Positions 6,199-52,966 are shown, counted from the first letter of the stretch. The stretch: 64,000 bases of DNA from an uncultured Bacteroidales bacterium (GCA_902792555.1 CADAZW010000002.1:7480-71479); one strand, 5' to 3'. Numbers and translations: made by a program. Notes: generated by a model from the sequence alone, not told the origin.

Positions 6199-6282
6199 GG
6201 GATTAGATTTCGTTTCAAGGCTTTTAGATTTCGTTTCAAGGCTTTTAGATTTCGCTTCAAGGCTATTAGTTTTGATTTCCAC
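6199..6282 (+). repeat. R1 array, locus 1: four tandem 21-nt units (GCTTTTAGATTTCGTTTCAAG type)
   Basis: Units at 6199-6219, 6220-6240, 6241-6261 and 6262-6282, read directly from the sequence. Confidence 0.9.
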
Positions 6283-12441: not shown

Positions 12442-12521
12442 AAATTTGAGATTTGAAATTTGAAATTCAGGCATGTCCGCAACCGGACTGAGCTCAAATC
12501 TCAAATTCCAAATCTCAAATT
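12442..12521. repeat. 80-nt imperfect hairpin built from GATTTGAAATTTGAG stutter arms
   Basis: The left arm AAATTTGAGATTTGAAATTTGAAATTCAG pairs with the right arm CTCAAATCTCAAATTCCAAATCTCAAATT. The loop contains the mini-hairpin GTCCGCAACCGGAC. Confidence 0.85.
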
Positions 12522-13880: not shown

Positions 13881-14118
13881 ATTTGAAATTTGAGATTTGA
13901 AATTTGAAATTTAGCCAAGTCCGGTGGTGGACACTGAATGCCGAAGGCATCGCGAGAAATTGCTTTTGAGCAATGCTCTCTTTGAGCGAAGGCTCTGTCG
14001 GTGGTCGGCGAAGCCGGGCTGACAAATAAGAGCCTGATAGCGAAGCGGCACAGTAATTACCATAATTTTTTTTAGAAATTTATGCCCAACGGCCTGCTAA
14101 ATTTCAAATTTCAAATGC
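13881..14118 (-). repeat. E1: about 238-bp MITE-like composite element with 21-bp perfect terminal inverted repeats
   Basis: ATTTGAAATTTGAAATTTAGC at 13895-13915 and its exact reverse complement at 14096-14116. Subterminal motifs TTTAGCCAAGTCCGG and ATGCCCAACGGCCTGCTAAAT. Confidence 0.85.
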
Positions 14119-17925: not shown

Positions 17926-18615
17926 GGTTTTGATGTTTGTTTCTGCATACAAAGTTACGAAAAACCGAGGGCATAACAAAGAAGAATTCTCTCTTTTTAA
18001 GCCGTGACAGAGCAACTTTTTTTTGCTGCGTCAAGGTTGCGGAACACTGTGGGCATGGCAGAGGGATTTCCCAGAAAAACCTATTAGTTTATTATTATTA
18101 TTACTTTCTTTACTTTTCTTTTGTGTTACTTTTCTTTTTTTTCTTTCCCCCCGCGCCGTGACCGTATGAATCATACGGTCATAGACCTGACGGTGAACGA
18201 ATCGTTCACCCTCTTCATCTGCATGGCCGGGCGTTCCGCCAAGGGTGTCACGTTTTGTTACCCCCTTGTCTTCTATCGAATCATACGGTCGCTGACCGGT
18301 GTCGCGAATCACGACGGTGGTTTTGTCCTCGGCATTCTCTGCGCAGGCTCCATCAACCCCAGACTTTTCACCCCGCCGGAGAGCACCACCAACTTCATCC
18401 AGTCGCTCATCAACCCCAAGGGCGAACAAGGCGACGATGCAGAATAAAAACGTTACAAACGTTACAAACGTTACACCTAAAAATGTAACGTTATCCTCCA
18501 ATCTTTAACCTAACCCCCTTGAATTTTAAACTGAGCCCGTCGAAGTTTATTTTAACTCCGAGGAAAAAATTTTTAACTCCGTGGAAACATAATCTAAGAG
18601 CCTCGAGCTGTCATT

Positions 18616-18722
18616 TTCAAGGCTCTTAGATTTTTTTTCAAGACTCTTAGATTTCGGCTCGGCGCGATTAGATTTTGCTTCGACGGGCTCAGCATAAAGC
18701 TTCGACGCGATTAGATTTGGGT
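18616..18722 (+). repeat. R1 array, locus 2: five units of 20-22 nt
   Basis: TTCAAGGCTCTTAGATTT.., TTCAAGACTCTTAGATTTCGG, CTCGGCGCGATTAGATTTTGC, TTCGACGGGCTCAGCATAAAGC, TTCGACGCGATTAGATTTGGG. Confidence 0.9.
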
Positions 18723-20883: not shown

Positions 20884-23800
20884 TTACTCCTCCCAGTTCT
20901 CTTGGGTTTTGCGTACGTAGGTCTTGTAGCGGAGCTGGGCCATCTTTTGTGCCTCGCTGAAGAGTTCTTCGGCCTCGTCGGGATAGGCTTTCTTTACGCT
21001 GAGGTAGCGTACTTCGCCCATAAGGAAGTCGTGGAAGTTCTCCCAGTTGGGCTCCTTGGAGTCAAGGCTGAAGGGGTTCTTGCCTTCCTCGGCCAGAGCG
21101 GGGTTATAGCGCCAGAGGTGCCAGTAGCCGCACTCTACGGCCTTCTTCTCCTCTGCCTGGCTCTTGCCCATGCCGCCCTTGGCCTTGAGGCCGTGGTTGA
21201 TGCACGGTGCGTAGGCTATGACGAGTGAGGGCCCGTGCCATGCCTCTGCCTCGCGGATGGCCTTGAGGCACTGGGCGTGGTCGGCGCCCATGGCTATCTG
21301 GGCTACATAGACGTAGCCGTAGGTGGTGGCTATCATGCCGAGGTCTTTCTTGCGGATGCGCTTGCCCTGTGCGGCGAACTGTGCGATGGCGCCGAGGGGC
21401 GTGGCCTTGGAGGCCTGGCCGCCGGTGTTGGAATATACCTCGGTGTCGAGTACGAGGATGTTGACGTCCTCGCCTGAGGCGATGACGTGGTCGAGGCCGC
21501 CGTAGCCGATGTCATAGGAGGCGCCGTCGCCGCCGATGATCCACTGTGAGCGCTTGGCCAGATGGGCCTTGCCCTCGAGCAGCTGGCTCTCGAGCGCGCA
21601 GCCGCGGCATGGGCAGATGGGGCTGCCTGCTGCCTTGGCGTCCTTGGCTTCCTGCAGCTTTTGGGCTGCCACCTCGGCGCCGTAGAGCTCGATGCCCTTG
21701 CTCTGCCAGAACTCGATGGCTCCGTCGATGGGCAGTATGGCTTTCTCCAGCGCTGCCACAAACTCGTCGGTTGCCTGGCGGTTGGCGGCTGAGTCGTTAT
21801 AGGTGTCGAGCCACTTCTGGGTGGCTTCGCGCATCCAGTCGAAGGCGGTGGTCTTTACCAGCTCCTCTGCCTTCTCGCGCAGGATGCCGCGCATCTTCTT
21901 ATGACCCAGGTGCATGCCGAGTCCGAACTCGCAGAAGTCCTCGAAGAGGGAGTTGTTGAAGCACGGTCCCTGGCCCTTTTCATTGGTGGTGTAGGGCGTG
22001 GAGGGGATGGATGCTGAGTAGATGCTGGAGCATCCTGTGGCGTTGGCTACCATCTGGCGGTCGCCGAAGAGCTGCGAGATGAGCTTGACATAGGGTGTCT
22101 CGCCGCAGCCGGAGCATGCTCCTGAGAACTCAAAGAGGGGCTTGGCGAACTGTGAGTTCTTGACATTGCTGCTGACGTCGACGAGGTTCTGCTTGGAGGG
22201 CACCTTGACGAGCTTGTCCCAGTCGGCGGCCATCTTCTGCATCTCGGGTGCGTCGGGGTTGAAGGGCACCATGGTGAGTGCCTTGCCGAGCTTGGGATTG
22301 CCCGGGCATATGTCGGCGCAGTTGCCGCAGCCGAGGCAGTCGAGCACTGAGGGCTCGATGACGAAGTGCATGCCCTTCATGGCTGCCGGGGCGCGCATCT
22401 CGATGGTGTCGAGGCCGGGGAAGGCGGTGAGCTCATCGTCGGTGAGCACGAAGGGTCGGATGGCTGCGTGGGGGCAGATGTAGGCGCACTGGTTGCACTG
22501 GATACAGTTTTCCTTGTTCCATGCGGGCACGAAGGCCTCTACGCCTCGCTTCTCATAGGCGGCGGTGCCCACCTGCCATGAGCCGTCGATGGTGGCGTGC
22601 TTGGCAAAGGCGCTTACGGGCAGCAGGTCGCCGGCCTGGGCGTTGATGGGACGCACGAGCTCCTTGACGAATGCGGGGGCGTCGTCGGCCTTGGGGGCGT
22701 CATCGGGCAGGTTGGCCCACTCGGGCTTGACATTGAGCTGCTTATATTCGCCACCGCGGTCGATGGCGGCATAGTTCTTGTCAACGACGTCCTGACCCTT
22801 GGCGCCGTAGGACTTAAGGGCTGCGGCCTTCATCTTCTCAACGGCCAGCTCAACGGGGATCACCTCGGTGATGCGGAAGAAGGCTGACTGGAGGATGGTG
22901 TTGGTGCGGTTGCCCAGGCCAATCTCCTGTGCTATCTTGGTGGCGTTGATGGTATAGACGGTGATGTTGTTCTGCGCGAAGTAGCGCTTAACCTTGGCGG
23001 GCATGAACTTCTCGAGCTCGGCATCGTCGAAGATGGTGTTGAGCAGGAAGGTGCCGTTCTTCTGCAGGCCGCGGGTTACGTCATACATATGGAGGTATGC
23101 CTGCACGTGGCATGCCACGAAGTTGGGCGTGGTGACCAGATAGGTGGAGCGGATGGGGGTGTCGCCGAAGCGGAGGTGGGAGCAGGTGAAGCCTCCTGAC
23201 TTCTTGGAGTCGTAGGAGAAGTAGGCCTGGCAGTACTTGTCGGTATTGTCGCCGATAATCTTCACGCTGTTCTTGTTGGCACCCACGGTGCCGTCGGCGC
23301 CGAGGCCGTAGAACTTGGCCTGGAACATGCCTTCGCCGCCCAGTGCTATCTCCTCCACTGCGGGCAGGGAGGTGAAGGTCACGTCGTCAACGATGCCCAC
23401 GGTGAAGTGGTTCTTGGGCTCGGGCATGGCGAGGTTGTTGAATACGCTGATAATCTGGGCGGGGGTGGTGTCGTGAGAGCCGAGGCCGTAGCGGCCGCCT
23501 ACGATGATGGGGCGGTCCTTAACCTCAAAGAAGGCGTCCTTGACATCGAGGTACAGGGGCTCGCCGTTGGCGCCGGGCTCCTTGGTGCGGTCGAGCACGG
23601 CAATGCGCTTGACGCTCTTGGGCACTGCCTGGAGCAGGTGCTTGACGGAGAAGGGGCGATAGAGATGGACGCTGATCATGCCTACCTTCTGGCCTTGGGC
23701 GTTGAGATAGTCGATGGCCTCGCGGGCTGCATCGGTGGCGCTGCCCATGAGGATAATCATGCGGTCGGCGTCGGGGGCTCCGTAGTAGGAGAAGAGGTGA

Positions 23801-24579
23801 TACTTGCGGCCGGTGATGTTGGAGAGCTCGCCCAGGTATTTCTCAACTACCTCGGGTACTGCATCGTAGTAGGGGTTGCAGGCCTCGCGGTGGGTGAAGA
23901 ATGTCTCGGGATTCTCGGCGGTGCCACGGGTGACGGGGCGCTCGGGCGACATGGCACGGTCGCGGAAGCGCTTGATATACTCTTCCCTGACGAGGGGACG
24001 GATGTCCTCCTGGTCGAGGAGCTCAATCTTGTGATATTCATGGGAGGTGCGGAAGCCGTCGAAGAAGTTGACGAACGGCACGCAGGTCTCCAGTGAGGCG
24101 AGGTGGGCGGCGGCGGTCATGTCCATAACCTCTTGCACGGAGCCCTCGCAGAGCATGGCGAAGCCGGTCTGGCGGCATGCCATCACATCCTGATGGTCGC
24201 CGAAGATGCAAAGCGAGTGGCTGGCCAGGGTGCGGGCGCTGACATCAAAGACGCAGGGTATCAGCTCGCCGGCTATCTTGTACATATTGGGTATCATCAG
24301 CAGTAGGCCTTGGGAGGCGGTGAAGGTGGTGGTTAGCGCACCGGCCTGCAGCGCACCGTGAACGGCACCGGCAGCACCGGCCTCTGACTGCATTTCCTGC
24401 ACGCTTACTGTCTGGCCCCACAGGTTCTTGCGGCCGCGGGCAGCCCATTCGTCTACATGCTCCGCCATGGGCGAAGAGGGGGTGATGGGGTAGATAGCTG
24501 CTACCTCGGAGAACATATAGCTAACGTGAGCCGCAGCCTCGTTGCCATCACAGGTGATGAATTTCTTTTCCTTTGTCAT
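20884..24579 (-). CDS. nifJ: pyruvate:ferredoxin (flavodoxin) oxidoreductase
   Basis: 1231 aa. N-terminus DGNEAAAHVSYMFSEVAAIYPITPSSPMAE, two 4Fe-4S motifs (CIQCNQCAYICPHAAIRP; CLGCGNCADICP) and a TPP motif GGDGASYDIGYGGLDHV. Confidence 0.97.
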   Translation of the reverse strand: MTKEKKFITCDGNEAAAHVSYMFSEVAAIYPITPSSPMAEHVDEWAARGRKNLWGQTVSVQEMQSEAGAAGAVHGALQAGALTTTFTASQGLLLMIPNMYKIAGELIPCVFDVSARTLASHSLCIFGDHQDVMACRQTGFAMLCEGSVQEVMDMTAAAHLASLETCVPFVNFFDGFRTSHEYHKIELLDQEDIRPLVREEYIKRFRDRAMSPERPVTRGTAENPETFFTHREACNPYYDAVPEVVEKYLGELSNITGRKYHLFSYYGAPDADRMIILMGSATDAAREAIDYLNAQGQKVGMISVHLYRPFSVKHLLQAVPKSVKRIAVLDRTKEPGANGEPLYLDVKDAFFEVKDRPIIVGGRYGLGSHDTTPAQIISVFNNLAMPEPKNHFTVGIVDDVTFTSLPAVEEIALGGEGMFQAKFYGLGADGTVGANKNSVKIIGDNTDKYCQAYFSYDSKKSGGFTCSHLRFGDTPIRSTYLVTTPNFVACHVQAYLHMYDVTRGLQKNGTFLLNTIFDDAELEKFMPAKVKRYFAQNNITVYTINATKIAQEIGLGNRTNTILQSAFFRITEVIPVELAVEKMKAAALKSYGAKGQDVVDKNYAAIDRGGEYKQLNVKPEWANLPDDAPKADDAPAFVKELVRPINAQAGDLLPVSAFAKHATIDGSWQVGTAAYEKRGVEAFVPAWNKENCIQCNQCAYICPHAAIRPFVLTDDELTAFPGLDTIEMRAPAAMKGMHFVIEPSVLDCLGCGNCADICPGNPKLGKALTMVPFNPDAPEMQKMAADWDKLVKVPSKQNLVDVSSNVKNSQFAKPLFEFSGACSGCGETPYVKLISQLFGDRQMVANATGCSSIYSASIPSTPYTTNEKGQGPCFNNSLFEDFCEFGLGMHLGHKKMRGILREKAEELVKTTAFDWMREATQKWLDTYNDSAANRQATDEFVAALEKAILPIDGAIEFWQSKGIELYGAEVAAQKLQEAKDAKAAGSPICPCRGCALESQLLEGKAHLAKRSQWIIGGDGASYDIGYGGLDHVIASGEDVNILVLDTEVYSNTGGQASKATPLGAIAQFAAQGKRIRKKDLGMIATTYGYVYVAQIAMGADHAQCLKAIREAEAWHGPSLVIAYAPCINHGLKAKGGMGKSQAEEKKAVECGYWHLWRYNPALAEEGKNPFSLDSKEPNWENFHDFLMGEVRYLSVKKAYPDEAEELFSEAQKMAQLRYKTYVRKTQENWEE

Positions 24580-24683
24580 ATTTGTATAGTTGTGTTAAGT
24601 GTTTGCCGTTAGAGACTTCCCCTGGGGAGTACCCTGGCGTGAGGGGGGTAAGTCTTCTCCCTTAGCGGGATAAGAGAGGGTTT

Positions 24684-25868
24684 TTAATACAGGAATCCGA
24701 AGAGCCAGATGGGTATGTCGCCATCGCGGGAGACCTCGGTATTGTAGCGCGTGTAATAGACGTTTTTGTCCTTGATGCGCTTCTTGGCATTCTTGTCGCA
24801 GACGTATATTTGCTTGTTGCCGTCAATGATGAAGAGTCCGGGCTTGCGAGTCTCCACCTTGTGGTGACGCCAGATGCTGTTGGTGAAGAAGGTCTCCATC
24901 ACTTCCTGGTCGGAGGGTGCGCCGCTCAGTATGGCGTAGAGCAGGTTGGTGTTGTGGGTGAGCACCCTTGCAGGCTTCCTGGGGCCCTCGGCATTGCTGG
25001 GCTTGTATATCTGGTGGATGAGGCGTGCCTCCTCCAGGTTGTTCATGTAGTTCATCACGGTGGCGCGAGACGTGTTGATCTCCTTGGCCAGGTTGCTGAC
25101 GTTGGGCGACTCGCTGCCTCCCAGCACGAGGAGGTATAGCAGCTTCTTGAGGCGACTGACGTATTTCACGTCAATCTGCTTGGTGAAGAGCACGTCCACC
25201 TCAATCATGGCGTTGATGGACTTGAGCAGGTTTTCAGTGAAATTGTGTTTCTCGATGTAGAAGGGGTAATAGCCGTGATGCAGATAGCTCTGCAGGAAAA
25301 TCCAGGGCCTCACCTTCATGAGGATGCTTTTCTGCACCTCCTCGGTGTGGTCGAGGATATCGTCAAGGGTTACGCGCTGGATGTCAAAGCCTGCCTGCAT
25401 GTTGATATACTCGCGGAAGGAGAATCCGTGGAGTACATAGAAGTGAGCAAGCTTGGAGAGCTCGTCATTCTCCGTGCCGGGCTCCTCCAGGGTGGTGGTG
25501 GCAAAGATGATTTGCAGCAAAGGCAGTGTGTGGTAGCATTCGCACAGTTCCTCGCGCCATCCGCTTTGCTTAAACAGCTGGTCAACGATGAGCACCCTGC
25601 CGCCGCGTCTTACAAACTCCTGGGCAAAGTCCACCAAGCCACGGCCGCGGAAGTAGAAGCTGTTCATGTTGATGTACAGGCATCGGCCTACCGACAGGCT
25701 GTAGTTCTTCTTGGCATACTGCAGCAAGAAAGTGGTCTTGCCCACTCCGCGTGGGCCCTTGATGCCGATTAGGCGATATTTCCAGTCAATATCGTTCATC
25801 AGCGGACGCGTCATCGACAGATCGGTGTGATCCAGCAAGTAGGTGTGGCGTTGAAAAAAGCTTTCCAT
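24684..25868 (-). CDS. AAA-family ATP-binding protein (AAA_14 plus DUF4143 architecture)
   Basis: Walker A GPRGVGKTT. Length and C-terminal region are typical of the widespread DUF4143 ATPases. Confidence 0.8.
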   Translation of the reverse strand: MESFFQRHTYLLDHTDLSMTRPLMNDIDWKYRLIGIKGPRGVGKTTFLLQYAKKNYSLSVGRCLYINMNSFYFRGRGLVDFAQEFVRRGGRVLIVDQLFKQSGWREELCECYHTLPLLQIIFATTTLEEPGTENDELSKLAHFYVLHGFSFREYINMQAGFDIQRVTLDDILDHTEEVQKSILMKVRPWIFLQSYLHHGYYPFYIEKHNFTENLLKSINAMIEVDVLFTKQIDVKYVSRLKKLLYLLVLGGSESPNVSNLAKEINTSRATVMNYMNNLEEARLIHQIYKPSNAEGPRKPARVLTHNTNLLYAILSGAPSDQEVMETFFTNSIWRHHKVETRKPGLFIIDGNKQIYVCDKNAKKRIKDKNVYYTRYNTEVSRDGDIPIWLFGFLY

Positions 25869-28098: not shown

Positions 28099-29955
28099 TT
28101 ATTTCATCACGCGCATTTCGCATTTCTTGCAATCAAACTCCAGTTCAAACCGCCGCCCGTTGGGCAGAGCCAGGAAGAGAGGGCCCTCGCTCTTTATTTC
28201 CCTATTCCCTACATCCTTATTCTTTCTTTTGCTGCACATTCCGAGCGAATATCTGATGCAGTGGCGGCATGTCATTATGGCGGTGCGCCTTTTGGGTTCC
28301 CTAATCTCAAAGGCGGGCTCAATGTCGGTAGCTCCCCGGCACTCGTAGAATTGCCGCGCCATTCTGTTGGCGACATTCTCGGTGAAGGGAACCACTCCCT
28401 CCGCAAACCTGCCCTGCAGGGATTTCTCCCCTTGAGGGGGAGTGAGAGGGGGCTCTCCCTCTGAGGGGGAGTGAGAGGAGGCTGGCAGGCCCACCTTCTC
28501 AATCAGCTGCCTGCGCCATTGGCTAAGCTGCGAGGCAGGGATGAAGTATTCTTTGTCAAGGTCGAGGCTTACGTTGCCTATCTCATAGGCAGTGCTGCCG
28601 GTCTTGCGCAGTTCGGTCTCTATGCGCTGTCGCTGCGGCTTGAGGGCAGGCTGGTGGGGGGCCTGGCATTCGAGGGTGGCTGTGTGGCCATAGATGCTGG
28701 CGGCGCTGAGGCGGAAGCCTTCGGGGATATCGGTCATACTGATATCAAGGCTGATGGTTCGCATCGGGGTGGGGCGGAGCATGGCAGCTTCGAAGGCGGC
28801 ATCGTGGTTGCGGAAGAGAGGGGTCTTGGGCCTGAGGTCGGCAGGCATCTTATGGGGAAAGAGCCTGTTGTTGTCGGCGCGGTTGACGCGGAAGCCCTGC
28901 AGCGAGCCGTCGGGGGCAAAGTAGCTGATGCCATCGCCGTTGTGAAAACTGCTTGTGCCTCCAACCAGGATATAGCTGCTGCGTATCTCCTTCACCAGGC
29001 CTACGGGCTCACCAATGACCTTGGGAGTGTCGATGGAGGCCACGTCCTCGGTGCGGCCGTGTAGGAAATATTCGGTGAAGCCGCGATTGAAGGTCTTGTC
29101 AAGGTTGGGCTCAAATTCCACATGGCATTGCCCCACGGAGCTGCGGCGGTAGTCATGCGGTCTTCTCCTTATTATATTATTAAGCAGTCGGCTGTAGAAG
29201 GCGGTGGTGTTCTTCACATAGGCTATGTCCTTCAGCCTTCCCTCAATCTTGAGCGAGCTGATGCCGGCGTCGAGCATTTGCTCCAGGCTGCGGCTGCGGT
29301 TCATGTCCTTGAGCGAGAGCAGGTGCTTGTTGCTGACGAGGTTACGGCCCTCGGCATTCTGCAGGTCGAAGGACAGCCGGCAGAACTGTGCGCACTCGCC
29401 GCGGTTGGCGCTGCGACCGAAGCAATGCTGTGAGGCATAGCATTGGCCGCTGTAGCTGACGCACAGGGCGCCGTGGACAAAGGCCTCCAGCTTCATCTCC
29501 GGGCAAGCCTTGTGGATGGCGGCAATGTCCTTCAGCTCCAGCTCGCGGGCGAGCACAGCCTGACGGAAGCCCCAGTCGTGGAGCTGCCTTACCTTGTCGG
29601 CGCTGCGTATGTCCATCTGGGTGCTGGCGTGGAGGGGCAGGGGCAGGTCCATCTGTAGCAGGGCGGTGTCCTGCACTATCAGTGCGTCAACACCCACCTC
29701 GTAGAGCCTCATGATGAGGTCGTGCACCTGGGTGAGCTCGCCGTCGTAGAGAATGGTGTTTACCGTGACATATACCCTGGCTCCGTAGCGGTGGGCATGG
29801 GAGCAGAGCCGGGCAATGTCCTCCACGGAGTTGCCGGCGGTGTGGCGCGCACCAAATGCCTCGGCGCCGATATATACTGCATCGGCTCCGCAGTTGATGG
29901 CTTCAATGCCTATGTCTGCCGTGCGGGCAGGGGCCAGCAGCTCTATCAGTTTCAC
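28099..29955 (-). CDS. U32-family peptidase-like protein (RlhA/TrhP/YhbU-YhbV family), GTG start
   Basis: N-terminus ELLAPA...AINCGADAVYIGAEAFGAR and the motif E.FVHGALCVSYSGQCYAS, which is characteristic of U32. Confidence 0.9.
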   Translation of the reverse strand: MKLIELLAPARTADIGIEAINCGADAVYIGAEAFGARHTAGNSVEDIARLCSHAHRYGARVYVTVNTILYDGELTQVHDLIMRLYEVGVDALIVQDTALLQMDLPLPLHASTQMDIRSADKVRQLHDWGFRQAVLARELELKDIAAIHKACPEMKLEAFVHGALCVSYSGQCYASQHCFGRSANRGECAQFCRLSFDLQNAEGRNLVSNKHLLSLKDMNRSRSLEQMLDAGISSLKIEGRLKDIAYVKNTTAFYSRLLNNIIRRRPHDYRRSSVGQCHVEFEPNLDKTFNRGFTEYFLHGRTEDVASIDTPKVIGEPVGLVKEIRSSYILVGGTSSFHNGDGISYFAPDGSLQGFRVNRADNNRLFPHKMPADLRPKTPLFRNHDAAFEAAMLRPTPMRTISLDISMTDIPEGFRLSAASIYGHTATLECQAPHQPALKPQRQRIETELRKTGSTAYEIGNVSLDLDKEYFIPASQLSQWRRQLIEKVGLPASSHSPSEGEPPLTPPQGEKSLQGRFAEGVVPFTENVANRMARQFYECRGATDIEPAFEIREPKRRTAIMTCRHCIRYSLGMCSKRKNKDVGNREIKSEGPLFLALPNGRRFELEFDCKKCEMRVMK

Positions 29956-29996
29956 GATTCCTAATTTCTAATTTCTAATTCCTAATTTCTAATTCA
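29956..29996. repeat. AATTTCTAATT stutter repeat spanning the U32 start / metA stop junction
   Basis: GATTCCTAATTTCTAATTTCTAATTCCTAATTTCTAATTC. On the minus strand it supplies the last metA codons (DELEIRN*). Confidence 0.85.
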
Positions 29997-30871
29997 TCCA
30001 CGTACTGCTGCAGCCAGTTGTGGTAGAATCGGCGGCCGGTGTCTTGCCAGGTGACGTTGACGCCCTTGGTGGGGTCGTCGTCAACGAAGTAGTTGAGCGG
30101 CACGCTGATGGGTACGCCCTTGGCCATGTCGCGCTCATACTCAAAGCGCAGTCGGCCCTCGGCGTACTCCATGTGACCGTTGGCAAAGATGTGACGTCCG
30201 CCCCAGGCAATGGCCAACTCGGGGCCGGTGTGCTCCTGATCGATGAGCACAGTCAGCTCCTCCTGTGCCTCGAGCTCGCTGCGCAGCATGGTGATATGCC
30301 TGCTGATGGGCACCATTACCTCCAGGCTCAGCCCCTCGGTGAGCGGGCAGTCGTTGCGCAGCCTGATGTGGGGATAGACGCCGAAGAGCTTCTCCTCCGT
30401 CCAGTGCTTGTCGATGCCGAAGAATATTTTCAGCGCAGCGAAGGCTCCCCAGCAGATGTTGAGAGTGGAGCGGACATGGGTGAATGTCCAGCGATAGACT
30501 TCCTGCAGCTGCGGCCAGTAGGTTACCTCTTCATAGTCGAGGTGCTCCAGCGGTGCACCGGTGATAATCATGCCGTCGTAGAGGCTGCCGTCTTCCATTA
30601 TCTCCGCAATGTCGGTGTAGTAGGTGTCCATGTATTCTTGCGGAGTGGTCTTGTAGCGCAGGCCGCTCATCTTGGCCAGGGTGACGGCTATGTCGAGGCC
30701 GGCGCCATCCATCATCGTATAGTATTCCTCCTCGGCCTCCTGCTTCTGCGGCATGAGGTTGAGGATGACAAGCCTCAGCGCACCGGCACCGGGCTTGTCA
30801 TCGCTGATGCTTATGCCTTGCTGACGCAGCCTCGCCACTGATGGATGGTTCTTAGGTAGGAAAATCATCAA
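29975..30871 (-). CDS. metA: homoserine O-acyltransferase (MetA family)
   Basis: Contains LRLVILNLMPQKQEAEEEY and the downstream MetA-like core. Length of 298 aa fits the family. Confidence 0.88.
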   Translation of the reverse strand: MMIFLPKNHPSVARLRQQGISISDDKPGAGALRLVILNLMPQKQEAEEEYYTMMDGAGLDIAVTLAKMSGLRYKTTPQEYMDTYYTDIAEIMEDGSLYDGMIITGAPLEHLDYEEVTYWPQLQEVYRWTFTHVRSTLNICWGAFAALKIFFGIDKHWTEEKLFGVYPHIRLRNDCPLTEGLSLEVMVPISRHITMLRSELEAQEELTVLIDQEHTGPELAIAWGGRHIFANGHMEYAEGRLRFEYERDMAKGVPISVPLNYFVDDDPTKGVNVTWQDTGRRFYHNWLQQYVDELEIRN

Positions 30872-30902
30872 TGCTCAATGCTCAATGTTCAATGTTCAAT
30901 GC
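30871..30902. repeat. CAATG(C/T)T stutter repeat between the pepO stop and the metA start
   Basis: The stretch CAATGCTCAATGCTCAATGTTCAATGTTCAATGC fills this short intergenic gap (coordinates approximate). Confidence 0.85.
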
Positions 30903-32939
30903 TTACCAAATGTCCACCCTCTTGGCTTTGGGCACGAAGAGCGGGTCTTTCTTGGTAATTTTGAAAGCCTTGTACCATGCGTCTATATGAGGCAGGGCGC
31001 CGTTCACTCTCCACTCGCCGAGGGAGTGGGGGTCGCGGGCGGTGAGGTCGCGGATGGCCTCTTCGGTAATGTTCTGTGCCCATACTCCGGCATAGGCAAG
31101 GAAGAAGCGCTGGTCGGCGGTAAAGCCGTTGGCCATGTCTGCCCCGGTCTTGCCGGCATCTTTTTGAGCCTTCTTGAATGCTGTGTAAGCCACTTGCAGG
31201 CCACCGTGGTCGGCCAGGTTCTCGCCGAGGGTGAGATCGCCGTTGGCCTTAAGGTCGGGCAGCACGCTGATGTTGGAGAAGAAGTCGGTCATCACCTGTG
31301 CACGAGCCTTAAACTTGTCGCCGTCGCCTTCTGCCCACCAGTCGCGGAAGTTGCCCTCCTTGTCAAACTGGCGGCCCTGGTCGTCGAATCCGTGAGTCAT
31401 CTCATGACCGATGACCACGCCGATGGCGCCGTAGTTGAAGGCATCGTCAGCCTGCATGTCGAAGAAGGGGTATTGCAGGATGCCGGCGGGGAAGCATATC
31501 TCGTTGGTGGTGGGATTGTAGTAGGCGTTGACGGTCTGCGGGTACATATACCACTCGTCGCGGTCAACGGGCTTCTTGTATTTCTCCTCCACAGTCTTGC
31601 GGTTGGCCCATTCGCGCACATCCTGCATCGACTCGTAGAGCGACTTGCTGGCGTCGATGTCGAGCTTGGAGTAGTCTCTCCATTTGTTGGGGTAGCCAAT
31701 CTTGACATAGAAGGAGGAGAGCTTGTCCTTGGCGTAGGCCTTGGTCTCGGCGCTCATCCATTTCTGCGCGTCGATGCGCTCAGCCAGGGCTATCTGCAGG
31801 TTCTTCACCAGCTGCTCCATGCGAGCCTTGTTCTCTGCGGGGAAGTATTTCTCCACATAGAGCTGTCCCACAGCCTCGCCCAGTATGGCGTTGACGGCCG
31901 ATACGCTGCGTTTCCAGCGTGCCTGGGGCTCCTTCTGGCCCGACATGGTGCGGTTGTAGAAATCGAAGTTCTGCATGTAGATCTCGTCGCCCAGCACATT
32001 GGTGTTGCCGTTGATGAGGGTCCACTGCATCCAGTCCTTCAGCGTCTGCAGGTCTGTCTCGTTGAGTATGGCCACTGCCTCCTTGACGGCCTCGGGCTGG
32101 CCTACGTCGAGGATGTCGAGGTCGTCAATATAGTTGAGGTGGAAGTACTGGTCCCAGTCGTAGCCGCCAAACTGCTCCTTGAATTCGGCATAGGTCATCT
32201 TATGGTAGTTGGAGGCGGGGTCGCGCAGCTCCACGCGGCTCTTGGATGCCTTGGCCATGCGTGTCTCCACGGCCATCACCGACTCCATCTTGCGCAGGGC
32301 GGTGAGCTCGTCGTCGCCCAGCAGCTTAAACATCTTCACGATGTGCTGCTTGAAGGCCTCGCGTATCTTTGCGAATGCGGGGTCGTCGCTGAGGTAATAC
32401 TCCTTCTGTCCCAGCGAGAGGCCGCCCTGTCCCAGACTCACGATGTTGGAGGTGGAGTTCATCATGTCGGCATTGATGTCTGCGCCCCACAGCTCGTCTG
32501 CGCCTTTGATGGAGTTAAGCACCATCAGGCGCTTCAGCTCGTCGCGGTCCTTGATGTTGGCGATGGCCTTGAGGTCGGCTTTGATGGGGGTGATGCCCTC
32601 CTTGTTCTGACGGACGGAGTCCATCATCATGCCGTAGAGGTCGCCAATCTTCTGCGCTACGCTGCCCTTCTCGTGCTTCTCCTTCGTAAGGCTGAGGATG
32701 AGCTCCTTTATCTGCTCGCGGTTGGCCTCAGCCACGGCGTCGAAGGAGCCGAAGCGGGAATACTCAGGCTTGAGGGGGTTGTTGTCAATCCATCCGCCGC
32801 AGGCATAGCGATAGAAGTCGGTGCCGGGCTTAACGGACTTGTCCATGTTGCTAACATCCACTCCGTGCGAGTGGTTGAAGGTCTGTGCTGTGGCTGCAGT
32901 CATCGCAGCCGCCAGTGCAAGTGTCATAATGATTTTCAT
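30903..32939 (-). CDS. pepO: M13-family zinc metallopeptidase (PepO/endothelin-converting-enzyme-like)
   Basis: Signal peptide, zinc motif HEMTHGFD and a downstream ENLADHGG motif. Length 678 aa. Confidence 0.93.
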   Translation of the reverse strand: MKIIMTLALAAAMTAATAQTFNHSHGVDVSNMDKSVKPGTDFYRYACGGWIDNNPLKPEYSRFGSFDAVAEANREQIKELILSLTKEKHEKGSVAQKIGDLYGMMMDSVRQNKEGITPIKADLKAIANIKDRDELKRLMVLNSIKGADELWGADINADMMNSTSNIVSLGQGGLSLGQKEYYLSDDPAFAKIREAFKQHIVKMFKLLGDDELTALRKMESVMAVETRMAKASKSRVELRDPASNYHKMTYAEFKEQFGGYDWDQYFHLNYIDDLDILDVGQPEAVKEAVAILNETDLQTLKDWMQWTLINGNTNVLGDEIYMQNFDFYNRTMSGQKEPQARWKRSVSAVNAILGEAVGQLYVEKYFPAENKARMEQLVKNLQIALAERIDAQKWMSAETKAYAKDKLSSFYVKIGYPNKWRDYSKLDIDASKSLYESMQDVREWANRKTVEEKYKKPVDRDEWYMYPQTVNAYYNPTTNEICFPAGILQYPFFDMQADDAFNYGAIGVVIGHEMTHGFDDQGRQFDKEGNFRDWWAEGDGDKFKARAQVMTDFFSNISVLPDLKANGDLTLGENLADHGGLQVAYTAFKKAQKDAGKTGADMANGFTADQRFFLAYAGVWAQNITEEAIRDLTARDPHSLGEWRVNGALPHIDAWYKAFKITKKDPLFVPKAKRVDIW

Positions 32940-32943
32940 ATTG

Positions 32944-34905
32944 TTATTGTTGGTTATTAAGTTCTTCCAGTTGTTCGGAGGCGGCAGTCCACTCGTCCAT
33001 GGCTTTGTCCAGCTGTTGGCTGAAGGCCATGTGCTTCTCTATCAGCGTCATGTCGCTGGCGCCTTCTATTGTGCTCATGCGGCTCTCAATCATCTTGATG
33101 GCAGCCTCCAGCTCGCTGATGTGCTGCTCGGCCTCCTTCACCTGCTTCTCCAGCTTGTTGACTCGTTTCCTCTGCTCCTTCTGCTGCTTATAGAGCGAAG
33201 CTCCCAGCCCCATAGCCCCCTCTGACTCCTCCTCGGAGGGGAGTACCCTGGCGCCAGGGCTGGGGAGGGGCTTCGGGCTGGAGGAGATCTTGTTGGCTTC
33301 GGGCTGCCTCCCCAGGTAGTCATATATTCCGCCGAGATGCTCGCGCACCCTGCCGCCGCCGAAGGCATAGACGCGGCTCACCAGTCCGTCGAGGAAGTCG
33401 CGGTCGTGGCTCACCACTATCACCGTGCCCTTGAAATTGAGCAGAGCCTCCTTCAGCACGTCCTTGGTGCGCATGTCCAGGTGGTTGGTCGGCTCGTCGA
33501 GTATGAGGAAGTTGACAGGCTGCAGCAGCAGCTTGAGCATCGCCAGACGGCTGCGCTCGCCGCCGCTGAGCACCATGACCTTCTTGTCGCTGGCCTCGCC
33601 GCCAAACATGAAGGCGCCCAGCAGTTCACGTATCTTCAGCCTCACGTCGCCGGTGGCTACGCGGTCGATGGTGTCATAGACGGTGAGGCTCTCGTCCAGC
33701 AGCTGTGCCTGGTTCTGGGCGTAGTAGCCTATCTGCACGTTGTGGCCTATCTTGAGCGTGCCGTCGTAGGGAATCTCGCCCATTATGCATTTCACCAGCG
33801 TTGACTTGCCCTCGCCGTTGCGGCCCACAAAGGCCACCTTCTCGCCGCGGCGGATAGTCATGTTGACATGGCTGATCACCCGGTGCTCGCCGTAGGCCTT
33901 GCCCACCTCGTCGCATATCACGGGGAAGTCGCCGCTGCGCATGGGCTCGTTGAAGCGCAGGTGGAGGGTGGCGGTGTCCACCTCGTCAATCTTGATGGGC
34001 ACGATTTTCTCCAGCTGCTTGATGCGGCTCTGCACCTGCACCGCCTTGGTCGCCTTGTAGCGAAATCGCTCGATGAATGCCTTGGTGTCGGCTATCTCTT
34101 TCTGCTGATTTTCGTAGGCGCGGAGTTGCTGCTCACGCCGTTCAGCCCTCAGTTTAACAAACTCATCGTAACCTACCTTGTAATCAATCAGTTGTCCGCA
34201 GCTAATCTCCAGTGTGCGCGAGCAGACATTGTTGATGAATGCGCGGTCGTGGCTCACCAGCACCACAGAGCTTTTCGACTCCTTGATAAGGAAGTTCTCC
34301 AGCCAGCTTATGCTCTCAATGTCGAGGTGGTTGGTGGGCTCGTCCAGCAGCAGCACGTCGGGGCGCTGCAGCAGGATTTTGGCGAGCTCAATGCGCATTC
34401 GCCATCCTCCGCTGAACTCGCTGGTCGGCCTCTGGAAGTCCGTTCGCTCAAAGCCCAGCCCCATCAGCGTGCGCTCCATGTCGGCACGCCAGCTCTGGCC
34501 GCCGCTCATCTGCAGTTGCTCCTGCAGCGTGGTGCTCTGCTCAATCAGTTGGGCATAGGCCTCGCTCTCATAGTCGGTGCGCTCGGCGAGCTCGCGGTTG
34601 ATGGCGTCCAGGCGTTGCTCCTTCCGGCGCAGCGAGGAGAAAGCCTTCTCCGTCTCCTCGATGAGGGTGCAGCTGTCGCTGAGCTTCATCACCTGGGGCA
34701 GGTAGCCCACCGTGCTGCCCTGCGGCATAGCCACGCAGCCCGCCGTGGGTTGCTGCAGGCCGGCAATGATCTTGAGCATCGTGCTCTTGCCGGCGCCGTT
34801 CTTGCCCACCAGGCAGACGCGCTCCCTGTCGTTGACCACAAAGCTCACGCCCTCAAACAGAGGCTCAACGCTGAATTCAACTTTCAGATTCTCAACCGAA
34901 ATCAT
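32944..34905 (-). CDS. ABC-F family ATPase (translation-factor-type, two ABC domains, C-terminal coiled coil)
   Basis: Two Walker A motifs (GKNGAGKST; GRNGEGKST), two LSGG signatures, no TM domain. Confidence 0.93.
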   Translation of the reverse strand: MISVENLKVEFSVEPLFEGVSFVVNDRERVCLVGKNGAGKSTMLKIIAGLQQPTAGCVAMPQGSTVGYLPQVMKLSDSCTLIEETEKAFSSLRRKEQRLDAINRELAERTDYESEAYAQLIEQSTTLQEQLQMSGGQSWRADMERTLMGLGFERTDFQRPTSEFSGGWRMRIELAKILLQRPDVLLLDEPTNHLDIESISWLENFLIKESKSSVVLVSHDRAFINNVCSRTLEISCGQLIDYKVGYDEFVKLRAERREQQLRAYENQQKEIADTKAFIERFRYKATKAVQVQSRIKQLEKIVPIKIDEVDTATLHLRFNEPMRSGDFPVICDEVGKAYGEHRVISHVNMTIRRGEKVAFVGRNGEGKSTLVKCIMGEIPYDGTLKIGHNVQIGYYAQNQAQLLDESLTVYDTIDRVATGDVRLKIRELLGAFMFGGEASDKKVMVLSGGERSRLAMLKLLLQPVNFLILDEPTNHLDMRTKDVLKEALLNFKGTVIVVSHDRDFLDGLVSRVYAFGGGRVREHLGGIYDYLGRQPEANKISSSPKPLPSPGARVLPSEEESEGAMGLGASLYKQQKEQRKRVNKLEKQVKEAEQHISELEAAIKMIESRMSTIEGASDMTLIEKHMAFSQQLDKAMDEWTAASEQLEELNNQQ

Positions 34906-35145: not shown

Positions 35146-35232
35146 AATCGCGCAGAGCCGTTCAGTTTTGGCGCGATTAGATTTCATTTCGGCGCGATTA
35201 GATTGTGGCTCTGCGCGATTAGATTTTTATGC
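35146..35232 (+). repeat. R1 array, locus 3: leader TTTAATCGCGCAGAG plus three GGCGCGATTAGATT units
   Basis: Read directly. The period is 21 nt. Confidence 0.9.
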
Positions 35233-43058: not shown

Positions 43059-43166
43059 TAATCGCGCAGAGATTGTCAGTTTCGGCGCGATTAGATTTCG
43101 GTTTGGCGCGATTAGATTTTGTTTCGGCGCGATTAGATTTGCCGCCAAGGCTCTCAGATTTCCTTT
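43059..43166 (+). repeat. R1 array, locus 4: leader TTTAATCGCGCAGAG plus three GGCGCGATTAGATTT units and one degenerate unit
   Basis: Read directly. The period is 21-22 nt. Confidence 0.9.
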
Positions 43167-43328: not shown

Positions 43329-43439
43329 TTTTGTTATCACGCTTTGCGCTTAGTCGTGTGTCAAGAGGAGTTAGGAGTTAATGGTAAATAGCCAAATTGT
43401 ATATAAATTGTAATTTGTGAAATTGTAAATTACATGGTT

Positions 43440-46310
43440 TCAAAGTTTCTCTCTCAGGAATTTGGCTGTGTGGCTGCCGGGGCACTGCGCCACTTGCTCG
43501 GGTGTGCCCTGGGCTACTATCTGTCCGCCGAGGTCGCCGCCCTCGGGGCCGAGGTCGATGATGTGGTCGGCGCACTTGATGACTTCCATGTTGTGCTCGA
43601 TGATGACGATGGTGTGGCCGTGGTCGATGAGTGCCTGGAAGGCGCGGAGCAGTATGCTGATGTCATGGAAATGGAGTCCGGTGGTGGGCTCGTCGAAGAT
43701 GAAGAGTGTGGGCTGTGTCTTCTCGCTGGCGAGATAGTAGGCGAGCTTGACGCGCTGGTTCTCGCCGCCGCTGAGTGTGGAGGAGGGCTGTCCGAGCTTG
43801 ATATAGCCGAGGCCTACGTCCTGCAGGGGCTTGATGCGGCGGGCGATGGAGGCCTGGCCGTTGGCGCTGAAGAAGCTGATGGCCTCGTCTACGTCCATCT
43901 CGAGGATGTCGTGGATATTCTTGCCGGCGAAGCGCACCTCCAACACGTCCTTCTTAAAGCGCTTGCCGTGGCACTCCTCGCACTCGAGCTCGATGTCGGC
44001 CATGAACTGCATGGACACCTTGATTTTGCCCTCGCCGTTGCAGTTGTCGCAGCGGCCGCCCTCGGCATTGAAGGAGAATGTGGCGGGGGTGAAGTCCATC
44101 TGGCGTGACAGGGGCTGGTCGGCCATGAGGCGCCGTATGAGGTCGTATGCCTTGATATAGGTGATGGGGTTGGAGCGTGAGGAGGTGCCTATGCTGCTTT
44201 GGTCGACGAGGGTGACGGCCTTGATGGCCTTGAGGTTGCCCTCGAGGGAAAGGAACTCGCCCGGGCGGTCGCAGGCCTCGTCCAGGTGGCGCTTGAGGCC
44301 GCGGTAGAGGATGTCGTTGACGAGGGTGGACTTGCCGCTGCCGCTGACTCCGGTGACTACGGTCATCACGTTGAGGGGGAACTTCACGTCGATGCCCTTG
44401 AGGTTGTTGGCGCGGGCTCCCTTGACCTCTATGTAGCGATTGCTGCAGCGGCGGCTCTGCGGTACGGCTATCTTGTCGATGCCGAGCAGGAAGTTGAGGG
44501 TGTGGGAGGTTGGGTGTTTGAGATTTGAAGTTTGAGATTTGAAATTTATTTCTTTCAGGTCTCCCTGGAAGACAATCTGTCCGCCGTTGACTCCTGCGTC
44601 GGGGCCGAGGTCGATGATATGGTCGGCAGCGCGCATGATCTCCTCATCGTGCTCCACTACTATCACGGTGTTGCCCAGTTGCTGCAGGCGGCGCAGCACG
44701 CCTATGAGCTGCTGGGTGTCGCGCGAGTGGAGGCCTATGCTGGGCTCATCGAGTATGTAGAGTGAGCCTACGAGACTGCTGCCGAGGGAGGTGGCTATGC
44801 TGATGCGCTGGCTCTCGCCGCCGCTGAGTGTGGAGGCGGTGCGGCCGAGGGTGAGGTAGCCCAAGCCGATATCTACGAGCACCTGCAGGCGGTTGCGTAT
44901 CTCCTGGACCAGGACGGGGTAGTCGCCGTCGGGCATCTGCCTGAAAATGTCGTTGAGCTGGCTGACGGGCATGTAGGTAAGCTCGGTGATGGTGTGGCCG
45001 CAGAGTTTGACATAGTCGGCCTCCTTCTTGAGGCGGTGGCCATGGCAGGCGGGGCAGGTGGTCTTGCCGCGGTAGTGGGCGAGCATGACGCGGTACTGTA
45101 TCTTATATTGGTTGCGCTTGACCATGCGGAAGAAGGCGTCGATGCTTACCTGCATCTCTTCGGGCATGGCCTGCTCGTCGGCATCGCCGTGCCAGAGGAT
45201 GTCCTTCTGCTCCTGGGTGAGGCTGTAGTATGGCTGGAAGATGGGGAATCCCTTGGGGCCCTGGCGCTCGCAGAAGACGCGCTTCCACTCGCTCATCTTC
45301 TCGCCGCGCCAACACTGGACAGCGCCGTCATAGACTGATAGTGAGCTGTTGGGGATGACCAGGCTCTCGTCGATGCCTATGAGTGAGCCGAAGCCCTCGC
45401 ACTCGGGGCAGGCGCCGGCGGGCGAGTTGAAGGAGAACATGGCGTCGGTGGGGCGTTCAAACTGGATGCCGTCGCGCTCGAAGGCGGAGGAGAAGGCCCT
45501 GATGGTCTGGGGAGACTCCTCTATCTCTCCTATAGGGGAGGACCCTGGCGCAGGAGTTTCTCCTTTAGTGGGACGGGAGGGTGTCTCTCTGATGATGCAT
45601 TGTCGGCTGCCCTCGTCGAATGCCGTCTCGATGCTCTCGCGCAGTCGGGAGAGGGAGTCGGCGTCGGTGCGGCGCGCCAGGCGGTCGATGAGGATGTTGA
45701 CCTCGAGATTCTCCAGCTGGTGGTCGCTCATGGTGCCGAGCAGGTCGGCTATGTCGCGTATGTCGCCGCCGATGCTTACGCGGGAGAATCCCTGCTTGAG
45801 TTCCATCTCAAGCTGCTGGCGCATGGTGCGCCCCTGTGGCACGGTGAGGGGGCTCTCGACGGTGAAACGGCTGCCCTCGTCCATTTGGAGGACATAGCTG
45901 ACCACGTCCTCAATGGTGTCGCTCTTGACTTCCTGTCCGCTGACGGGCGAGATGGTCTTGCCGGCGCGGGCAAAGAGCATGCGCAGATAATCGTAAATCT
46001 CGGTGGAGGTGCCTACGGTGGAGCGCTGGCTGCGGTTGGTGGTGCGCTGCTCGATGGCTATGGCGGGGGGAATGCCGTGGATATAGTCGCACTCGGGCTT
46101 CTGCAGGCGGCCCATAAACTGGCGGGCATAGCTGGAGAGGCTCTCCACATAGCGGCGCTGGCCGTCGGCGAAGAGGGTGTCGAAGGCAAGGCTCGACTTG
46201 CCGCTGCCGCTGAGGCCGGTGATGACCACAAATTTGCCGCGGGGTATGGTGATGTCAATGCCCTTGAGATTGTTGACGCGTATGCCTTTTGCTACTATGT
46301 TACCGTCCAC
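43440..46310 (-). CDS. uvrA: excinuclease ABC subunit A (UvrA paralog 2), uninterrupted
   Basis: 956 aa. Walker A GLSGSGKSSLAFDTLFADGQRRY, zinc modules, two LSGGEsQR signatures and a second Walker A GVSGSGKSTL. Confidence 0.95.
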   Translation of the reverse strand: MDGNIVAKGIRVNNLKGIDITIPRGKFVVITGLSGSGKSSLAFDTLFADGQRRYVESLSSYARQFMGRLQKPECDYIHGIPPAIAIEQRTTNRSQRSTVGTSTEIYDYLRMLFARAGKTISPVSGQEVKSDTIEDVVSYVLQMDEGSRFTVESPLTVPQGRTMRQQLEMELKQGFSRVSIGGDIRDIADLLGTMSDHQLENLEVNILIDRLARRTDADSLSRLRESIETAFDEGSRQCIIRETPSRPTKGETPAPGSSPIGEIEESPQTIRAFSSAFERDGIQFERPTDAMFSFNSPAGACPECEGFGSLIGIDESLVIPNSSLSVYDGAVQCWRGEKMSEWKRVFCERQGPKGFPIFQPYYSLTQEQKDILWHGDADEQAMPEEMQVSIDAFFRMVKRNQYKIQYRVMLAHYRGKTTCPACHGHRLKKEADYVKLCGHTITELTYMPVSQLNDIFRQMPDGDYPVLVQEIRNRLQVLVDIGLGYLTLGRTASTLSGGESQRISIATSLGSSLVGSLYILDEPSIGLHSRDTQQLIGVLRRLQQLGNTVIVVEHDEEIMRAADHIIDLGPDAGVNGGQIVFQGDLKEINFKSQTSNLKHPTSHTLNFLLGIDKIAVPQSRRCSNRYIEVKGARANNLKGIDVKFPLNVMTVVTGVSGSGKSTLVNDILYRGLKRHLDEACDRPGEFLSLEGNLKAIKAVTLVDQSSIGTSSRSNPITYIKAYDLIRRLMADQPLSRQMDFTPATFSFNAEGGRCDNCNGEGKIKVSMQFMADIELECEECHGKRFKKDVLEVRFAGKNIHDILEMDVDEAISFFSANGQASIARRIKPLQDVGLGYIKLGQPSSTLSGGENQRVKLAYYLASEKTQPTLFIFDEPTTGLHFHDISILLRAFQALIDHGHTIVIIEHNMEVIKCADHIIDLGPEGGDLGGQIVAQGTPEQVAQCPGSHTAKFLREKL

Positions 46311-52731: not shown

Positions 52732-52966
52732 GTTTGAGGTTTGAGGTTTGAGATTTGAGGTTTAGCCAAGTCCGGAGTTAATAGTTGATAATTGATAGTT
52801 GACAGTTGAAAGTTGAGAATTAACGGTTAGCGGTTAGCGTTGAGCGGTTAGCGGAAAAGTTAGTATCATACGCCCCCGGCCCTACGGGCCACCCCCTCTA
52901 TCTTAGAGGGGGAGCCGACTCTTTGCCTTCAAATGCCCAACGGCTTGCTAAATCCTAATTTCTCAC
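52732..52966 (-). repeat. E2: about 235-bp composite element homologous at its ends to E1, abutting the nucleoside hydrolase ATG
   Basis: TTTAGCCAAGTCCGG at 52761-52775 and ATGCCCAACGGCTTGCTAAAT at 52933-52953. The interior is made of other stutters (TTGATA/GTTGA, CGGTTAGCG) and the hairpin CCCCCTCTATCTTAGAGGGGG. Confidence 0.8.

Follow-up and report, generated by a model that had tools for sequence, protein, structure and literature searches.

A dispersed palindromic repeat, in frame in housekeeping genes of a rumen Bacteroidales bacterium, and the association of its hairpin units with DUF559 genes

What kind of DNA can lie in the spacer between two genes and also be translated within conserved proteins? 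The question is raised by a GC-rich 16-nucleotide core in an uncultured rumen Bacteroidales bacterium. We analyzed a 64,000-nucleotide stretch of this genome (GCA_902792555.1 CADAZW010000002.1:7480-71479), henceforth referred to as the window. The core, GGGGAG(T/G)ACCCTGGCG, occurs on the + strand as GGGGAGTACCCTGGCG at 24624-24639 and 33238-33253, and as GGGGAGGACCCTGGCG at 45535-45550 (identity between copies of 16/16 and 15/16). When up to two mismatches are allowed, the window contains three matches against 0.10 expected, and none of 100 dinucleotide shuffles reached three. These are the three positions given in a preliminary description of the locus, and its further details were recovered as well. 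The flanking arms AGACTTCCCC...GGGGGGTAAGTCT and GGAGACTCC...GGGTGTCTC are present, a perfect palindrome (CCCTGGCGCCAGGG) lies at 33246-33259 in the ABC-F gene, and the peptides quoted for ABC-F and UvrA were both reproduced. The gene names also hold: ABC-F, UvrA, AAA ATPase (AAA_14) and nifJ, i.e., pyruvate:ferredoxin oxidoreductase (PFOR). In reverse complement, the core begins with a third codon position in ABC-F (GARVLP) and with a second position in UvrA (APGSSP). Because these codon phases differ, the similarity is at the level of DNA and not of protein.

We scored copies with an nhmmer profile HMM built from six copies of the family and with a separate HMM of its hairpin unit. The family HMM detected four copies in the window, including one that had escaped the preliminary description (E = 5.7e-4). 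A fifth site is a possible relative. The features are as follows.

24606..24686, + strand: degenerate full-length copy, intergenic (nhmmer E = 1.3e-14; core at 24624-24639)
28422..28483, + strand: two tandem hairpin units of 29-31 nt, newly found (unit HMM E = 4.1e-10 and 1.4e-7)
33213..33260, - strand: half element in the ABC-F gene (nhmmer E = 2.6e-4; core at 33238-33253)
45513..45590, + strand: full-length copy in the gene for the UvrA paralog (nhmmer E = 1.9e-17; core at 45535-45550)
52888..52915, no strand assigned: possible relative, the intergenic hairpin CCCCCTCTATCTTAGAGGGGG (recognized by eye; unit HMM E = 34-43 only)

The genes that contain or flank these copies are the following.

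20884..24579, - strand: PFOR (nifJ-type), flanking the intergenic copy (TIGR02176, 1836.9 bits)
24684..25868, - strand: AAA_14 ATPase, flanking the intergenic copy (AAA_14, 3.9e-13)
28099..29955, - strand: U32-family peptidase, 618 aa (Pfam Peptidase_U32, 4.7e-69; DUF3656, 3.6e-17)
32944..34905, - strand: ABC-F ATPase, 653 aa (NF000355, 400.9 bits; Pfam ABC_tran twice and ABC_tran_Xtn)
43440..46310, - strand: UvrA paralog, 956 aa (TIGR00630, 1043 bits; UvrA matches in the PDB at E of about 1e-244)

The intergenic copy lies in the 104 nt that separate the AAA_14 ATPase gene, whose stop is at 24684, from the PFOR gene, which starts at 24579. The preliminary description had the core and arms right but not the extent of the element, whose real length is about 78 nt (24606-24686 and 45513-45590). 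Its ABC-F copy is real but is only a half element, which aligns best to the family in the orientation opposite to the one assumed; it consists of the central palindrome and one hairpin unit (33213-33240, - strand, from the unit match and the family alignment). The copy in the U32 gene comprises the units TTCTCCCCTTGAGGGGGAGTGAGAGGGGGCT and CTCTCCCTCTGAGGGGGAGTGAGAGGAGGCT (Tandem Repeats Finder, TRF: period 29 x 2.0). All three copies in open reading frames (ORFs) are translated in frame. The peptides are PASSHSPSEGEPPLTPPQGEKS for the U32 copy (residues 491-512, from the - strand), SPGARVLPSEEESEGAM for the ABC-F copy (residues 549-565), and RETPSRPTKGETPAPGSSPIGEIEES for the UvrA copy (residues 241-266, from the - strand).

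The copies in the window are degenerate. The intergenic copy is 69% identical to a copy in the related genome RUG13363 and the UvrA copy is 70-72% identical to consensus-like copies. Most of the palindromy has been lost (single-stranded DNA fold z = -0.4 to -1.0, the intergenic copy being at -1.0). The window copies are probably now inert fossils and, taken by themselves, they are ordinary decayed selfish DNA of a kind already known. With low confidence, the hairpin at 52888..52915 might correspond to both outer tails of the element directly joined, the interior being absent.

The three core-bearing copies align with one another well past the core, and we defined the element through pattern scans and protein-guided retrieval of better-preserved relatives. 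At full length, about 78 nt, the element forms a near-perfect palindrome in which two inverted hairpin-plus-tail units of ~30 nt surround a CTGGCGCCAG centre. Its consensus is GAGCCCCCCTCACCCCCTAAAGGGGAGGCCCCTGGCGCCAGAGTTCTCTCCCCTTTAGGGGGAGTTAGAGGGGGCTC, or by parts GAGCCCCCCTCACCCCCTAAAGGGGAGG-CCCCTGGCGCCAGAGTTCT-CTCCCCTTTAGGGGGAGTTAGAGGGGGCTC, with CCCTGGCGCCAG as the short centre between the inverted units. In each unit, a TTAG-A-GGGGG tail follows a C-run/loop/G-run hairpin. The two internal hairpins are CCCCTAAAGGGG and CCCCTTTAGGGG, and the terminal inverted repeats of ~14 nt read GAGCCCCC(C)TC(TA)AC ... GTTAGAGGGGGCTC. The whole element is self-complementary at 66 of 82 positions, and the consensus folds as single-stranded DNA at -26.4 kcal/mol (z = -4.5), a stability matched by none of 200 shuffles. 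Each strand of the consensus has exactly one stop-free frame (EPPSPPKGEAPGARVLSPLGGVRGG and EPPLTPPKGERTLAPGASPLGGEGG); the remaining frames meet TAA and TAG in the hairpin loops and tails. The element resembles a MITE in being small (<300 bp), non-coding and dispersed in multiple copies and in having terminal inverted repeats, and the ~30-nt unit with its inverted doublets corresponds to the 20-40-nt palindromic unit of REP/REPIN sequences. The tag of the unit is neither the GTAG nor the CGTC of REPs. We found no consistent direct repeat around full-length copies that would indicate a target-site duplication or an excision footprint, and the empty sites are too divergent to delimit boundaries.

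Several other classes of sequence were considered for the element. A structured RNA was dropped: Rfam yielded only a tRNA in the window and only rRNA and tRNA in 18 element-bearing loci, and RNA folds of the window copies were not better than shuffles (z -0.3 to -2.7), the exception being the + strand of the UvrA copy (z = -2.7). A cloverleaf or three-way junction, with the tail pairing to an upstream arm, was rejected as such an arm accompanies only 3 of the 114 units listed. An integron attC site, a CRISPR repeat, a diversity-generating retroelement (DGR) and an intein were rejected, as they did not fit the copies in ORFs, the lack of arrays and of splicing motifs, and the core-site consensus.

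We then searched for the element in other genomes. An extended core pattern matched 17 places in 185,579 species genomes. Three of these are in RUG13363, a sister rumen metagenome-assembled genome (MAG) and the closest genome (UvrA 90% identical), and the other 14 are single matches in unrelated GC-rich taxa, consistent with chance. The bare 16-mer, scanned across genome contigs, gave only single chance matches in unrelated GC-rich taxa, and neither the core nor the unit had a match in the viral contigs scanned. In the JGI metagenomes, 6 of 15 matches to the extended core pattern are true family members. With the unit pattern described below, near-consensus copies were located at no fewer than seven distinct sites of RUG13363; rumen metagenomes contain such copies as well. 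The copies in relatives are mostly intergenic. Two of them are identical and carry the exact consensus (L350 and L351), two others are identical over the central 58 nt (L212 and L213), and pairs from unlinked loci or different genomes show 70-94% identity over about 78 nt. By these sites and identities, the element is dispersed and has recently been active in relatives of the window genome.

Comparison of orthologs indicates that the host proteins exist with and without the element. All three in-ORF copies fall between Pfam domains or in structural gaps, in linkers that are missing or different in orthologs. The UvrA copy lies between UvrA_inter (132-241) and UvrA_DNA-bind (314-381), in an alignment gap relative to solved UvrA structures. 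At this site the window protein has 31 residues vs a turn of 9-15 residues in orthologs with ≤82% identity, and residues 241-266 are missing from the latter. The element is kept, with compensating indels, in a 97% identity cluster of 32 members (P0123) and on two long metagenome contigs (L219 and L232). Orthologs of 86-91% identity, from the clade of RUG13363, have a different insert at the site that is rich in heptamer repeats. In ABC-F, the copy occupies a hypervariable linker of ~40 residues ahead of the C-terminal helices, roughly constant in length and unrelated in sequence in every close ortholog. One ABC-F ortholog (P0005, 89% identity) contains a full-length near-consensus element that has its right boundary in common with the window copy and is read in another frame. 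The U32 site is just after the DUF3656 domain (380-487), and an ortholog with 72% identity has unrelated sequence there.

These comparisons support the proposal in the preliminary description of a dispersed GC-rich palindromic element that is intergenic and also in frame in housekeeping ORFs as foreign linkers. The alignments of UvrA and ABC-F orthologs that it had suggested delimit the inserts. Conservation of the segments as protein without similarity of DNA, which would have spoken against an element, was not observed: one DNA is read in different frames, and intergenic copies of the sister genome share 94% identity with a copy in an ORF (L213 and the ABC-F copy L225). Polymorphism among strains, another of its suggestions, was not seen, and protein clusters at 97-99% identity retain the inserts. 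A search of the protein database with a concatenated 51-aa element peptide returned two tiny ORFs only; even P0005 was missed, so this search is useless for counting in-frame copies.

Further repeats occur in the window and in the sister genome. In the RUG13363 UvrA gene, the site matching 45513-45590 holds the insert IKEEVKKEEAPAAELSNSQAPELSNS with GAACTCT-type heptamers, a small part of which (AAAGGAAGAAGCTCCTGCC) is possibly left over from the palindromic element. The UvrA paralog of the window has a second, unrelated insert at 44516-44547, a heptamer array (GTTTGAGATTTGAA x2.3) read in frame as INFKSQTSNLKH; orthologs below ~80% identity are without it. Tandem arrays of 7-nt period (ATTTGAA, GTTTGAG, ATTTCTA, TCAATGC, AGTTGAT and TTAGCGG) also occur at 12442-12467, 12493-12521, 13881-13912, 29957-29994, 30868-30903, 43404-43431 and 52732-52854. 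These arrays mark many boundaries between genes, frequently right before a start codon, and recall the heptamer STRR repeats of cyanobacteria. A separate repeat family consists of intergenic arrays of 21-nt period at four unlinked sites (6203-6273, 18614-18654, 35161-35226 and 43070-43140), all with a unit of the TTAGATTTCG type. A tandem repeat of 18 nt (GCAGATCACGCAGATAAG x3.8, 43259-43328) follows directly downstream of the UvrA paralog, in a probably spurious 100-aa ORF. At the C-terminus of a 933-aa ORF (35374-38175), whose ortholog in a related locus (L201) has a DNA_topoisoIV Pfam domain, a GAAAAC hexamer (x13.8) and 15/30-nt repeats at 37957-38108 encode a tail of ENENENDNEN... and KPDEGE...; an intergenic AACGAAAAC repeat at 55573-55604 is similar to these. 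The first uvrA gene of the window (2307-5106) is divided between two ORFs, 4447-5106 and 2307-4484, which overlap; the frame changes near 4447-4484 (...KVEPG* / ...GDGMITVLD). A frameshift, decay to a pseudogene or an error in the sequence could explain this.

The hairpin unit extends well beyond this lineage and is part of a cross-phylum superfamily. We used a 24-nt pattern, CCYYTKAGGGGGAGTKAGAGGRGG, which covers the right-hand hairpin and tail and for which about 0.1-1 chance matches are expected (an estimate from information content, with no shuffle control). It has at least 114 matches in at least 108 loci. The matches listed are overwhelmingly from Bacteroidota (Chitinophagaceae, Lentimicrobiaceae, Prevotellaceae, Flavobacteriales, Sphingobacteriales, Paludibacteraceae and Marinilabiliaceae), and others are in Ignavibacteriaceae, the candidate phyla radiation (CPR), Arenicellales and an uncultured gammaproteobacterium. 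A crude ORF call places 75 of the matches listed between genes, many of them adjoining ORF ends, and 39 in ORFs. At least four reading frames occur among the in-ORF units (PPLTPPKGE, APSNSPSGGE, PPLGGVRGG and PPEGELEGA). The tag is TTAG in Bacteroidota and CTAG, TCAG or CTGG in other phyla, with a G-run after it.

Two further settings of the units were seen. In 'Bacteroidia bacterium MS495-25', a unit (854-877 of locus L319) lies in an rRNA operon, ~50 nt past a tRNA (728-801) and before a partial LSU rRNA match. Nine loci of 'Lysobacteraceae bacterium OTbin.42' contain dense arrays of several hairpin types (CCTAACCTCCCCTAAATAGGGGAGGAA, TTCTCCCCCTTTTAGGGG and others) that resemble BIME-like mosaics; this MAG is AT-rich, and its taxonomic label looks doubtful for such DNA.

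In many bacteria the units flank one kind of gene, which encodes a small DUF559 (Vsr-like) endonuclease. In the leucyl-tRNA synthetase (LeuRS) of six Chitinophagaceae/Sphingobacteriales MAGs (L250, L255, L277, L283, L297 and L321), a unit is present at an orthologous site, at the left end of an in-frame insert of ~190 residues with the order inverted unit, DUF559, unit (Pfam PF04480, E = 2.3e-29). The same hairpin-DUF559-hairpin arrangement is in frame in the methionine synthase MetH (2841-6044 of locus L281) and in an epimerase/Polysacc_synt_C protein (1784-3427 of locus L352). In all of these inserts, peptides encoded by the hairpins flank a complete domain with its core motif intact; their placement is intein-like, without splicing domains. 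Units also bracket free-standing DUF559 genes in a gammaproteobacterial MAG. With a local DUF559 HMM we detected 11 ORFs in 0.75 Mb of unit-selected loci vs none in 1.62 Mb of control loci.

Locus L352 connects the complete element with such a gene. It holds two copies of the 77-nt element as in RUG13363 (E = 1e-21 and 1e-16), less than 4 kb from a 129-aa DUF559 gene that is bracketed by AGCCCCCAAG-CCCCCTAAAGGGGAG and CTCCCCTTTAGGGGG-CTCGGGGGCT, i.e., by the two hairpins of the element with their tails outward. The L352 ORFs are annotated as PF04480, and an RRQ...DF...E.DG..H core is visible in all DUF559 copies. The L352 DUF559 protein matches PDB 3HRL (E = 3e-17) and, more weakly, the Vsr-like homing endonuclease I-Bth0305I (3R3P, E = 0.002). 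PD-(D/E)XK group 58 unites Vsr, DUF559 and I-Bth0305I (PMC3424549).

The association was also observed in the reverse direction. We picked nine DUF559 genes from plasmid records by protein similarity alone (three from cyanobacteria, two from Deinococcus, and one each from Azospirillum, Sphingomonas, E. coli and Neisseria). All nine have C-run/loop/G-run hairpins within ~150 nt, in most cases with a tail of YTAG or CTGG and a G-run. This amounts to 23 hairpins in 9.1 kb vs 1.6 expected from shuffles (maximum 8), and the background is 0.055 per kb. Across phyla, the sequence of the hairpin varies with the DUF559 lineage and the architecture is kept. The flanked gene was DUF559 in every case seen, and neither a RAYT nor another candidate mobilizer was present in any locus examined. 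Neither the window nor ~60 kb of sequence from RUG13363, JAEEGG and JAEEGH yielded a DUF559 gene. We know of no demonstrated transposase, transposition or homing activity of DUF559. Our literature search returned no paper that contains the motif sequence and no report that links DUF559 to flanking hairpin repeats or to mobility. The full extent of the element, its fourth copy, the wider family and the DUF559 partner are additions to the preliminary description.

Our preferred reading, to which we assign a probability of about 0.7, is that the element is a lineage-specific, non-autonomous palindromic repeat, MITE/REPIN-like, that derives from a DUF559 element and is tolerated in protein linkers. 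As its halves are the hairpin-plus-tail modules that bracket DUF559 genes, the 78-nt element would consist of the ends of a DUF559 element with a 19-nt centre in place of the ORF. Copies would land, or be copied, anywhere, and selection would then purge those that break genes. Because the consensus has one stop-free frame per strand, the survivors in ORFs would be those that are in frame, stop-free and in linkers or loops, as in UvrA, ABC-F and U32. They would be translated as Pro/Gly/Ser/Glu-rich spacers and would subsequently decay. A DUF559 nuclease may act in trans, nicking or cutting at the hairpins and so driving their copying. The intergenic copy may incidentally act as an RNA or DNA hairpin. 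More tentatively, DUF559 could be the trans-acting enzyme of unrecognized cross-phylum REP/REPIN-like repeats, a RAYT-independent 'REPtron' whose members and miniatures would invade intergenic DNA and also, in frame, essential proteins such as UvrA, ABC-F, LeuRS and MetH.

We consider it rather unlikely that the relationship is the reverse, with independent REP-like palindromes spread by RAYT, another transposase or recombination, and DUF559 as a homing-type parasite of the doublet centre; the 78-nt element would then be the empty target and not a deletion derivative. DUF559 is related to I-Bth0305I, IS elements that target REPs are known (ISPpu9), and solo units far outnumber DUF559 ORFs (at least 114 vs 11). 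Each DUF559 insert in an ORF is flanked by units left and right, as if the doublet came first. However, the centre CCCCTGGCGCCAGAGTTCT was not found split around the DUF559 ORFs in L352 or LeuRS, and the loci examined offer no RAYT or alternative mobilizer that could have spread the palindromes. The association with DUF559 could arise just as well by homing into palindromes already in place, and the co-variation of hairpin and DUF559 lineage across phyla fits this account and the derivative model alike.

It is much less probable that the copies are selected cis elements (terminators, mRNA-stabilizing hairpins or operators for a palindrome-binding protein) that recur by function. The position of the intergenic copy directly after a stop codon and the very stable fold of the consensus are consistent with such a role, as are the many units elsewhere that adjoin ORF ends, like REPs (PMC3733652). 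Against it, three of the four window copies are in ORFs, in differing frames and with their palindromy lost, copies are missing at orthologous sites of close relatives, and there is neither an Rfam family nor an RNA fold that stands out from shuffles. Local slippage under GC or codon bias, which would make the linkers alike by convergence without any element, is effectively refuted: although indels are frequent at the ABC-F and UvrA sites, where relatives have tandem heptamers and further inserts of low complexity, slippage does not account for cores identical at 16/16 and 15/16 positions, the similarity over about 78 nt across unlinked loci and genomes (70-94%), or an intergenic member.

We compared the preferred reading, a DUF559-derived palindromic repeat, with known systems. 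REP and REPIN sequences (PMC3733652; PMC3116915) are similar in being imperfect palindromes of 20-40 nt with an unpaired end tag, in forming inverted doublets that yield a long hairpin, and in having a partner gene flanked by units. REPs are mostly extragenic, often adjoining stop codons, and a minority of them, tagged GTAG or CGTC, are in ORFs, in particular uvrA, uvrB and recBCD (PMC3733652). The family described here differs in its tag (TTAG or CTAG plus a G-run), in its flanked gene, which encodes a DUF559 PD-(D/E)XK nuclease and not a RAYT (an HUH Y1 transposase), and in a unit sequence that recurs in many families of Bacteroidota, whereas a REP is as a rule specific to its species. Rickettsia palindromic elements (RPEs) are likewise palindromic selfish DNA in frame in unrelated housekeeping genes, with a peptide tolerated at the protein surface (PMC10969869). 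RPEs are 100-150 bp long, confined to Rickettsia and presumably unrelated in sequence, whereas the elements here are of about 78 nt or single 30-nt units, and no associated nuclease gene is known for RPEs. The resemblance should be read as an analogy only, as the host here is a rumen Bacteroidales bacterium and the element is half the length of an RPE.

Bacterial MITEs (Correia, ERIC, the Coxiella QMITE and the Porphyromonas gingivalis BrickBuilt) are also small and dispersed, with terminal inverted repeats, no transposase and occasional in-frame fusions (PMC5896051). They also have a longer relative with the same ends; the candidate for it here encodes a Vsr-like nuclease and not an IS transposase. 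No target-site duplication was found around the element, and the family differs from BrickBuilt, which is reported as strictly intergenic. The hairpin-bracketed DUF559 proteins match both I-Bth0305I (PDB 3R3P) and the DUF559 structure 3HRL by sequence. The gene for I-Bth0305I lies in a group I intron of a phage, whereas the ORFs described here are free-standing or fused in frame and flanked by hairpin repeats. In yeast mitochondria, GC clusters and byp-type inserts are short GC-rich hairpins that invade essential coding sequences, and some are bypassed by the ribosome. They belong to another domain of life, and bypassing is not suggested for the element in the window.

In-frame palindromic inserts are thus known from Rickettsia (RPEs) and from the REPs of proteobacterial repair genes, and we found no description of them in Bacteroidota, which dominate gut and rumen communities. 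The family differs from these known in-frame palindromes in its tag, phylum, cross-family conservation of the unit and partner gene, and the family with its DUF559 association looks like a new form of such repeats. The two-way, cross-phylum association of hairpins with DUF559 outweighs the window copies in importance. If the nuclease mobilizes or targets the hairpins, a very large domain of unknown function would gain a testable role, a second enzyme class would join the REP/RAYT picture, and a rule would follow for the annotation of foreign linker segments and spurious small ORFs. If the 'REPtron' reading is true, the orphan family DUF559 would gain a function and many Pro/Gly-rich linker inserts in Bacteroidota proteins would be explained. 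Selfish DNA of this kind may be a source of raw linker sequence for essential proteins.
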